This document shows, piece by piece, positions 33,807-34,232 of a DNA stretch of 41,993 nt. The first letter of the stretch is position 1. Each line of letters starts with the position of its first letter. The notes under the pieces were generated by a model, which was not told where the DNA came from, searched no databases, and saw only the letters and a program-made list of their open reading frames with translations. Origin of the DNA: an uncultured Gammaproteobacteria bacterium (GTDB lineage: Bacteria; Patescibacteriota; Patescibacteriia; UBA9934; GWF2-40-263); contig CAYHDY010000004.1 of NCBI GenBank assembly GCA_964355525.1, forward strand, positions 1 to 41,993, read 5' to 3'. Position numbers and translations under genes: made by a program.

Positions 33807-34232
33807 TTACGAGCTTTGCTTGTCGCCCGACTTCTTGACGAACTCGAGGCGATCACCGGCGGTGAGGACGTAGGTTTCGCTCACGGCCGTGTTGTTGACG
33901 CGCGGTTCGGCTTCGGGGCCGATGTTGAGCATCGTCGCGAGCCGTTTGCGCACATCGCTGACTTTCTGGCCGACGACCTTGTAGCGCCCGCTCGATGCAC
34001 CGGACGTGACCTGAACGTCGTCGTCTTCATCGTCGTCCACTTCCGCATCTTGTGCCTGTTGCGCTTTGGCGCCGGGCTTGGCCGCGGCCGGACCTTGCTT
34101 GTCGAGGATCTGCTTGATGTACACGTCGCGGTCGAGACCGTTGACGAATTCAATGCCGAGCTTCTGGGACGCTTCGCGCAATTGCTTCTTGCTGTAACCG
34201 ACCAACTCTTCCTGAGTATAGCGTGTTGCCAT
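33807..34232 (-). CDS. HeH/SAP-like N-domain, acidic linker and ThiS/MoaD-like beta-grasp (Ubl) protein
   Basis: 141 aa in three parts:
- N-terminus YSKKQLREASQKLGIEFVNGLDRDVYIKQIL is Rho-N/SAP-like.
- Linker is A/K/Q-rich, then DAEVDDDEDDD.
- C-terminus YKVVGQKVSDVRKRLATMLNIGPEAEPRVNNTAVSETYVLTAGDRLEFVKKSG-DKQSS follows the ThiS/MoaD pattern (..VNG..V......L..GD.vEfv...G).
The start lies 2 nt after the E1-like stop. Confidence 0.6.
   Translation of the reverse strand: MATRYTQEELVGYSKKQLREASQKLGIEFVNGLDRDVYIKQILDKQGPAAAKPGAKAQQAQDAEVDDDEDDDVQVTSGASSGRYKVVGQKVSDVRKRLATMLNIGPEAEPRVNNTAVSETYVLTAGDRLEFVKKSGDKQSS

Follow-up and report, generated by a model that had tools for sequence, protein, structure and literature searches.

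A ubiquitin-like protein with a Rho_N-type helix-extended-helix domain, the candidate modifier of an E1/JAB cassette found in Uhrbacteria and jumbo-phage-like contigs

To our knowledge, conjugation by bacterial ubiquitin-like proteins (Ubls) has been shown only recently, in the Bil, Bub and CBASS systems, and in all of them the host uses it against phages. The described gene organization nearest to the locus reported here is operon type 6d, in which an E1 and a JAB enlarged by an additional N-terminal domain are encoded with a small Ubl that has a C-terminal Gly and with an E2-like protein lacking the canonical His (Iyer, Burroughs and Aravind 2006, PMC1779556). We analyzed a stretch of 41,993 nt (hereafter the window) of contig CAYHDY010000004.1 in assembly GCA_964355525.1, in which the minus strand carries, in this order, a conserved unknown gene, a RuvB-like ATPase, a JAB, a ThiF-type E1, a Ubl of 141 aa and two giant paralogues. 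Operon type 6d is taken here to be the same as the PRTRC cassette (TIGR03735-03738) and as Pfam Prok-E2_D. We propose that the 141-aa protein, in which a helix-extended-helix (HeH) domain precedes the Ubl, acts as the modifier within a self-contained cassette for conjugation (E1, E2 and JAB), itself a distant relative of the 6d/PRTRC type; this reading is probable while well short of certain. The main genes of the cassette are the following.

33807–34232, minus strand: HeH-linker-Ubl gene, 141 aa, stop codon at 33807–33809 (recognized by its open reading frame (ORF), homologues and synteny)
34235–34948, minus strand: minimal ThiF-type E1, 237 aa, with a GAGGGGS nucleotide loop and Cys170 in MSCEE (Pfam ThiF, E = 2.5e-12)
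34958–36166, minus strand: JAB/JAMM metalloprotease, 402 aa, with an extra N-terminal domain and a C-terminal extension (weak Prok-JAB and weak PRTRC_A matches)
36153–37337, minus strand: RuvB-like AAA+ ATPase, 394 aa, first gene of the operon (RuvB_N, E = 1e-35; RuvB_C; synteny with the related loci L003-L005)
30361–33528, minus strand: giant protein 1, 1055 aa, with an N-terminal Prok-E2_D-like domain (approximately nt 32749–33366) followed by ∼750 beta-rich aa (recognized by homologues and motifs)
27351–30116, minus strand: giant protein 2, 921 aa, a full-length paralogue of giant protein 1 in which both conserved Cys are lost (BLASTP)

Like 6d/PRTRC loci, the cassette encodes as separate proteins a JAB with an additional N-terminal domain, a small rhodanese-free ThiF-type E1, a ThiS-like Ubl whose C-terminal Gly is conserved in the family and an E2-like protein without the canonical His, and its best NCBIfam matches are PRTRC_ThiF for the E1, PRTRC_A for the JAB and, via homologues, PRTRC_B for the giant N-terminus. 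It differs in that the direct matches are far below the curated cut-offs: the E1 reached 46.3 bits (E = 3e-12) against the TIGR03736 cut-off of 144.75, which was still its best NCBIfam match, and the JAB reached 18.9 bits with PRTRC_A against the TIGR03735 cut-off of 101.8. Here an HeH domain precedes the Ubl, 600–750 additional aa follow the E2-like domain in a gene that is duplicated, and a RuvB-like ATPase stands in the operon. Moreover, 6d/PRTRC loci occur on proteobacterial plasmids and integrative and conjugative elements, whereas the cassette described here occurs in jumbo phages and Uhrbacteria chromosomes. For 51 relatives of the Ubl, PRTRC_C was absent from the 25 most-matched of 40 NCBIfam families, and the window Ubl itself had no NCBIfam match; among the seven cassette proteins, none matched the ParB-related protein or PRTRC D/E in NCBIfam. 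Judged by these matches, the cassette appears to be a relative of the 6d/PRTRC kind, the nearest described kind, and not a member of it.

The Bil and Bub defence systems likewise encode an E1, an E2, a JAB or peptidase and a Ubl together, and in them the peptidase encoded alongside processes the Ubl precursors (Chambers 2024; Hor 2024; Ye 2024, PMC11601596; Gong 2024, PMC11601603). Unlike them, the present cassette is found in phages and at a conserved chromosomal locus beside housekeeping genes, not in defence islands. In the survey of Bil/Bub Ubls, the N-terminal domains were disordered, coiled-coil or DUF1508, with no HeH among them (Gong 2024, PMC11601603). PADLOC models, which cover Bil, Bub and CBASS proteins, gave no match to the Ubl, E1, JAB or giant proteins and only generic AAA+ matches in the cassette. 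With ThiS, MoaD, SAMP and TtuB, the Ubl shares the beta-grasp fold, by way of its relatives the sequence family, and an adjacent minimal adenylating enzyme without ubiquitin-fold domain or rhodanese; it differs from them by a G-x-K-G/A/Q end in place of Gly-Gly, by the E2-like proteins and by the HeH at its front. JAMM partners are known for CysO, SAMP and TtuB. No description of a Rho_N-Ubl fusion, or of the phage module presented below, was found in the searchable literature.

The 141-aa Ubl ORF is real and more than a chance reading frame. It starts with ATG, and its translation contains KKQLREASQKLGIEFVNGLDRDVYIKQIL, AAKPGAKAQQAQDAEVDDDEDDD and ...KKSGDKQSS, exactly as stated in an initial annotation that had been made from the sequence alone. 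Homologues of the same length share 83, 72 and 48% identity with the protein, and syntenic copies with 38–43% identity were found in three GTDB genomes, namely two Ca. Uhrbacteria metagenome-assembled genomes (MAGs) and one unclassified bacterial MAG. The gene, including the codons of the QSS tail, is identical with zero differences in contigs of two independent lake/freshwater studies. Its ATG and the E1 stop codon are 2 nt apart, and a Shine-Dalgarno sequence could be read directly in the end of the E1 gene.

34243–34249, minus strand: Shine-Dalgarno AAGGAGG, 10 nt 5' of the Ubl ATG, within the 3' end of the E1 gene

None of the words of the Ubl sequence was present in the RNA runs of the same samples. 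An antisense ORF of 151 aa (33816–34271, plus strand) covers the whole Ubl gene and is best read as an unsupported shadow ORF.

The protein consists of a Rho_N-type HeH domain, a flexible disordered linker and a ThiS/MoaD-type beta-grasp domain, followed by a short C-terminal motif.

34092–34220, minus strand: Rho_N-type HeH domain, residues ∼5–47 (AlphaFold2, Rho_N matches in homologues, hhalign and PDB)
34017–34091, minus strand: disordered linker, residues 48–72, Ala/Gln-rich and then Asp/Glu-rich, with a predicted local distance difference test score (pLDDT) below 50 at residues 49–68
33828–34016, minus strand: ThiS/MoaD-type beta-grasp domain, residues 73–135, with invariant VTSGASS and GDxLEF motifs (AlphaFold2, Foldseek and ThiS in relatives)
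33810–33827, minus strand: C-terminal motif G136-D-K138-Q139-S-S, corresponding to the family G-x-K-G with its terminal Gly changed to Gln and two residues added

An AlphaFold2 model computed from an input alignment of 31 sequences placed helices at residues 7–11, 15–25 and 35–46 (pLDDT ∼80), disorder at residues 49–68 and in the tail at 137–141, and a strand-strand-helix-strand-strand arrangement at residues 73–132 (pLDDT 85–91). Direct searches of Pfam, NCBIfam, PHROG, PADLOC and PDB sequences with the 141-aa protein returned nothing useful, and the family signal came from profile search alone. Among 51 aligned full-length relatives, Rho_N was matched by 25 (best E = 9e-12), ThiS by 10, TGS by six and SAP by three; Rho_N, SAP and LEM belong to one Pfam HeH clan. 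Rho_N matches reached E-values of 1e-13 to 1e-14 in other relatives found by the profile of the window Ubl. When the N-termini of the window's clade were aligned by hhalign to those of the Rho_N-positive clade, the probability was 98.3% (E = 2e-14). Against the PDB, the N-terminal profile of the window clade had residues 11–49 of Rho (3l0o_A) as its top match (E = 0.008), and the phage-type profile matched the same region at E = 1.4e-6. Like the Rho N-terminal helix bundle, with which it aligns over these residues, the domain is a helix-extended loop-helix of ∼40 residues; unlike it, the domain is fused to a Ubl and not to an OB-fold/ATPase, and in the window clade it has no basic K/R-rich turn. 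The HeH domain that had been proposed for the N-terminus is borne out by the Rho_N matches in 25 of the 51 relatives, the hhalign result and the Rho match.

The C-terminal segment, which had been predicted to be ThiS/MoaD-like, is a beta-grasp of this type by the AlphaFold2 model, by Foldseek and by the ThiS matches in relatives. Foldseek against the PDB returned beta-grasp proteins only, including a TGS domain, MoaD (1fm0_D), Caldiarchaeum ubiquitin (6fj7), SAMP1, SUMO, NEDD8 and Urm1. MoaD, 6fj7, SAMP1 and Urm1 all had a probability of 1.0, and the MoaD match had a root-mean-square deviation of 2.5 Å over 76 columns. Among viral models, the top matches were stand-alone viral proteins of 66–71 aa with TM-scores of 0.70–0.73. 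Stand-alone and poly-Ubl relatives found with the window profile scored above the Pfam cut-off for ThiS (32.4 bits for P0138 and 43.2 bits for P0005). In the three same-length close homologues, VTSGASS, AGDRLEFVKKSG and K138 are invariant, and the linker is variable. The linker of the initial annotation is present, but the acidity ascribed to it is confined to this lineage: linker length and composition differ among homologues, being Pro-rich in L005 and Ser/Thr/Ala-rich in phages.

A profile search of the window Ubl over 1.84 billion cluster representatives yielded a family of 780 representatives at E ≤ 1e-3, 131 of which had E ≤ 1e-10. Its members include stand-alone Ubls of 68–70 aa ending in ...EFVKxSGxKG, tandem poly-Ubls in which the repeats are joined immediately after G-x-K-G, and proteins with one to three Rho_N domains N-terminal to the Ubl; Rho_N-Ubl fusions are many and C-terminal fusions few. 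The architecture, which the initial annotation did not know from characterised bacterial Ubls, is not unique: within this family the Rho_N-Ubl fusion is the standard modifier of a phage module. Other forms (P0121, P0128, P0022, P0005, P0006 and P0021) comprise C-terminal fusions, a Lys/Ala-rich tail and poly-Ubls, the latter with three or four repeats. One fusion of 253 aa in total has a C-terminal region of ∼145 aa that is GNAT-like by eye, and another joins the Ubl to a protein of ∼700 aa with a weak DUF4139 match.

The C-terminal ends were tallied for 167 proteins with an EF....G.K motif. The residue after the motif Lys was Gly in ∼146, Ala in 14, Gln in four, Ser in two and His in one, and among those with Gly, 84 terminate exactly at this second Gly and 30 have one extra residue, usually Cys. 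G136 of the window protein is the first Gly of the family-wide G-x-K-G and is conserved in at least 90%, and K138 is invariant. A Gly at 140 is kept by the two closest relatives, whose last residues are KQG-L and KQG-S, and the Uhrbacteria copies end in GDKA. The C-terminal Gly-Gly of ThiS and MoaD is found neither in the family motif, G-x-K-G, nor in the window protein, GDKQSS. Three observations place the reactive end most likely at position 139 (Gln in the window protein, Ala in the Uhrbacteria relatives and Gly in phages) and not at G136: the invariance of K138, the termination of 84 of the 167 proteins at the second Gly and the joining of poly-Ubl repeats at that point. The initial annotation had described a conjugatable Gly masked by five residues; the Gly is nearly invariant as expected, but it begins the G-x-K-G motif, and the reading is probably three residues off, with a tail of two residues (SS) in place of DKQSS. 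Nor is the sequence after the Gly variable as had been anticipated, since the alignment of homologues shows its D/x-K part to be conserved. Poly-Ubls joined at G-x-K-G, C-terminal fusions, short tails and the Gly-ended half of the tally are signs that family members may be processed and conjugated.

The E1 keeps its nucleotide loop and its DN and GGN motifs, and Cys170 in MSCEE is invariant (32 sequences). The E1-Ubl gene pair is kept in all related loci. In the JAB, the metal-site motif E...HSHx7Sx2D is intact and conserved. The initial annotation had assigned Ubl maturation to an adjacent JAMM protease; a JAB with an intact HSHx7Sx2D motif does share the operon with the Ubl, together with the ThiF-type E1, but it is the E1 gene that adjoins the Ubl and separates it from the JAB.

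The two giant proteins align with each other at 24% identity over 965 columns (BLASTP, E = 1e-33), and giant protein 1 is homologous to a phage giant protein (E = 8e-17). Over the first ∼290 residues, both window giant proteins can be aligned to the N-terminal part of 800–970-aa proteins encoded in related loci. Prok-E2_D was matched by 18 of 25 such homologous N-termini (best E = 4e-7) and PRTRC_B by 11 of the 25 (best E = 2e-4), so both giant proteins look E2-like by their N-terminal domain. The alignment contains the conserved motifs LPxNCRY, IEEPPxxRT, LAFPYVIFI and PLxNIxxxQxICxG, the last of which is reminiscent of the flap with HPN...C in UBC enzymes. Both conserved Cys, Cys61 and Cys175 (NICWG), are present in giant protein 1. 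Another Cys, that of VYVIEQPPCVR, was considered as the E2 active site and rejected because phage homologues are without it. Giant protein 2, which has neither E2_D-like Cys, may be an inactive RWD/UEV-like partner, and the same paralogue pair is present in L003 and L004. The profile of the giant N-terminus had no match among PDB sequences, and a word-index search with it returned nothing.

Relatives whose contigs are long are located on jumbo-phage-like contigs of 216–292 kb with a phage sheath gene, a multisubunit RNA polymerase, SbcCD and an RNA ligase. Scanning IMG/VR with the phage E1, we found 29 viral contigs, making ∼30 phage loci in all. In the deposited phage genomes of INPHARED, there was no Ubl homologue, and the ThiF matches were distant and in a different context. 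Almost all phage loci contain a module of a giant protein, a JAB, an E1, a Rho_N-Ubl, a second ThiF-like protein of 282–317 aa and a small protein of 110–168 aa with an invariant HPN...C (10561–11933 in L006; equivalents in L008-L040). The HPN...C motif is typical of UBC E2 enzymes, and the small protein had a weak UQ_con match in two of 16 cases. On this basis, each phage module would pair two E1-like and two E2-like proteins with a single modifier. Wherever a phage locus has an intact Ubl, it also carries the second ThiF-like gene (E1b), in most cases together with the small E2 gene (E2L), and the Ubl ends in KG or KGC, except in L010 (KHV). Identity between the window and phage proteins is 48% for the E1, 41% over 217 aa for the JAB, ∼30% for the Ubl and 26% for the giant N-terminus. 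In L039, three Ubl-family ORFs lie in a row (983–2356), two of which are intact Rho_N-Ubls while the first has a weak match and no C-terminal motif. In L012 and L013 (8722–9228), the Ubl ends in a duplicated motif, GRKGDRKGC.

The Ubl gene is predicted to be co-transcribed with the RuvB-like, JAB and E1 genes, because terminator-like hairpins flank this four-gene unit. Such hairpins were found 3' of the conserved unknown gene (37567–37544), of the Ubl gene and of the first giant gene.

33733–33765, minus strand: intrinsic-terminator-like hairpin and T-run directly 3' of the Ubl gene, marking the operon end

The RuvB-like gene overlaps the JAB start by 14 nt. Its product aligns over its full length to RuvB in the PDB (E = 2e-46), scores below both NCBIfam RuvB equivalog cut-offs and has an N-terminal extension of ∼85 aa. 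That a RuvB-like motor is predicted to be co-transcribed with the Ubl may point to a DNA setting for the cassette.

In the conjugation mechanism that we propose, the E1 would adenylate the C-terminus of the Ubl and may take it as a thioester on Cys170. The Ubl would then pass to Cys175 in the E2-like domain of giant protein 1 and be attached to a target, which may be giant protein 1 or another protein that its beta-rich C-terminal region holds. The JAB would trim extensions past the G-x-K-[G/A/Q] end and reverse the conjugation. The HeH domain would offer a second, non-covalent surface for nucleic acid or a partner protein, and conjugation would either bring this surface to the target or stay confined to HeH-bound sites.

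Several points weigh against this proposal. Conjugation, processing and nucleic-acid binding are all inferred from sequence and models. In a Pfam scan the window Ubl protein itself matches neither ThiS (E ≤ 1) nor Rho_N, so its domain assignments rest on homologues and profiles, and its ThiS membership would be by transitive homology only. Where the phage-type HeH has its basic turn, SKKRK, the window clade has F-x-N-G-L-D-R. On the side of the E2, the giant proteins of the window have no Prok-E2_D or PRTRC_B match of their own, an AlphaFold2 model of the giant N-terminus built from the two window paralogues was unusable (pLDDT 37), and an hhalign comparison of the giant N-terminus with the small phage E2 was not significant, NI..IC against HPN..C being the sole aligned stretch. 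A terminator lies between the Ubl gene and the giant genes, and the RuvB-like gene may be nothing more than the RuvB of the organism itself. Finally, the tail GDKQSS has Gln at position 139 and no Gly at 139 or 140, and every locus with the RuvB-like gene is without E1b and E2L and has a Ubl ending in KA or KQSS, with KAF on a related short contig. Because there is neither a Gly at the expected end nor a second E1 and small E2, the window clade may have lost conjugation or changed its chemistry.

The main rival explanation takes up these last observations. The Uhrbacteria-type Ubl would no longer be conjugated and would act as a non-covalent adaptor, its beta-grasp docking the E1, JAB or giant proteins and its HeH docking DNA or the RuvB-like motor. 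The division between RuvB-like loci and phage loci, in which E1b goes together with Gly-ended Ubls apart from L010, fits such an adaptor, and the window protein has lost even the Gly140 that its two closest relatives keep; the missing Gly, E1b and E2 would all be explained. On the other hand, an adaptor leaves unexplained why the clade has kept Cys170 and the catalytic motifs of the E1 as well as the metal site of the JAB, and the G-x-K motif and the beta-grasp surface are strongly conserved. A C-terminal Ala is, moreover, reportedly tolerated by at least some bacterial E1-like enzymes, as seen in work on Cap2 of CBASS. We regard loss of conjugation as an unlikely explanation, though one to be kept in view.

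A second alternative keeps the register first proposed, in which cleavage by the JAB after Gly136 would release DKQSS, leaving Gly136 to be adenylated and conjugated. Gly136 is the only Gly in the tail of the window protein as well as highly conserved, residues 137–141 are disordered in the model and the operon supplies a JAB. Against this register, K138 is invariant, the 84 proteins that end at G-x-K-G have nothing to remove and the repeats of poly-Ubls join after the second Gly; every family member would need removal of a conserved x-K-G, and we consider the register quite unlikely. That the Ubl is instead a ThiS/MoaD-like sulfur carrier, with an E1-made thiocarboxylate that thiolates a nucleic acid or cofactor to which the HeH brings the carrier, would agree with ThiS and MoaD as the closest sequence families, with a minimal MoeB/ThiF-like E1 and with the Ubl-dependent tRNA thiolation of Thermus TtuB/TtuC, where a JAMM protein is involved, but it is very improbable: a scan of the seven cassette proteins gave no rhodanese, cysteine desulfurase or sulfurtransferase match, the E2-like domains contain a conserved Cys, poly-Ubls and fusions typical of conjugation systems occur and the C-terminus is not Gly-Gly.

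The gene upstream of the operon was found to be conserved in the related loci.

37595–38497, minus strand: conserved gene with no family match, ∼300 aa from an internal Met, with the longest ORF extending to 38671 and a terminator of its own

Its product shares 43–45% identity with those of the syntenic genes in L003 and L004, had no Pfam or PDB match and contains a possible zinc ribbon (CPIHG...CPKC). A stretch of ∼55 aa is common to this protein and the N-terminal extension of the RuvB-like protein (38% identity over 58 aa, in comparison with L003). Adjoining and divergent from the gene is an ORF of 99 aa (38656–38955, plus strand) that is RRM-like by eye (KLFVGSIPW...RGFGFVEM). We also observed a dispersed GC-rich repeat of ∼120–190 nt with long internal hairpins in the gaps 3' of cassette genes, at 30157–30314, 33573–33741 and 37422–37544, with its core motif also at 11491–11515. 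This repeat is multi-copy, resembling repetitive extragenic palindromic (REP) sequences or miniature inverted-repeat transposable elements (MITEs), because its contig word depth is ∼45 against ∼5 in the flanking unique DNA.

The genes of the window include those for MraY, FtsW, MurG, CTP synthase, ribosomal protein L9 and PGI. Two of the three related GTDB MAG loci (one Ca. Uhrbacteria and one unclassified bacterial) are syntenic with the window at 50–76% protein identity, and the third (Ca. Uhrbacteria) shares the four-gene operon only. A phage origin of the window was rejected on account of the housekeeping genes and the synteny with Uhrbacteria MAGs. Relative to L003 and L004, the window has ∼10 kb of extra genes at 16800–27300, between the block of L9 and CTP synthase and the cassette; the genes scanned in this segment encode PGI, an O-antigen-ligase/TPR protein and a glycosyltransferase, and the two blocks are mutually inverted compared with L003 and L004.

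Taken further, the modifier reading would mean that a distinct Ubl system is present in jumbo phages and, through transfer, in Uhrbacteria, in which an HeH-bearing modifier is joined covalently to targets selected by a giant E2-fusion and thereby tethers them to DNA or RNA. The Uhrbacteria branch would have been re-wired to a non-Gly end (Ala or Gln) and would work with one E1 and a dedicated RuvB-like motor but without a canonical E2. We offer this picture as speculation and think it unlikely to hold as a whole. The family of 780 cluster representatives is large, uncharacterised and phage-centred: phages themselves appear to carry the full E1/E2/JAB/Ubl set with an HeH on the modifier, and a reduced version with a RuvB-like ATPase and a non-glycine modifier end is fixed beside housekeeping genes in small Uhrbacteria genomes. 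If the conjugation reading is true, the cassette would open to study a ubiquitin-like system on the phage side, would serve as a natural experiment on the importance of the terminal Gly in E1 chemistry and would exemplify a modifier with a second binding function.

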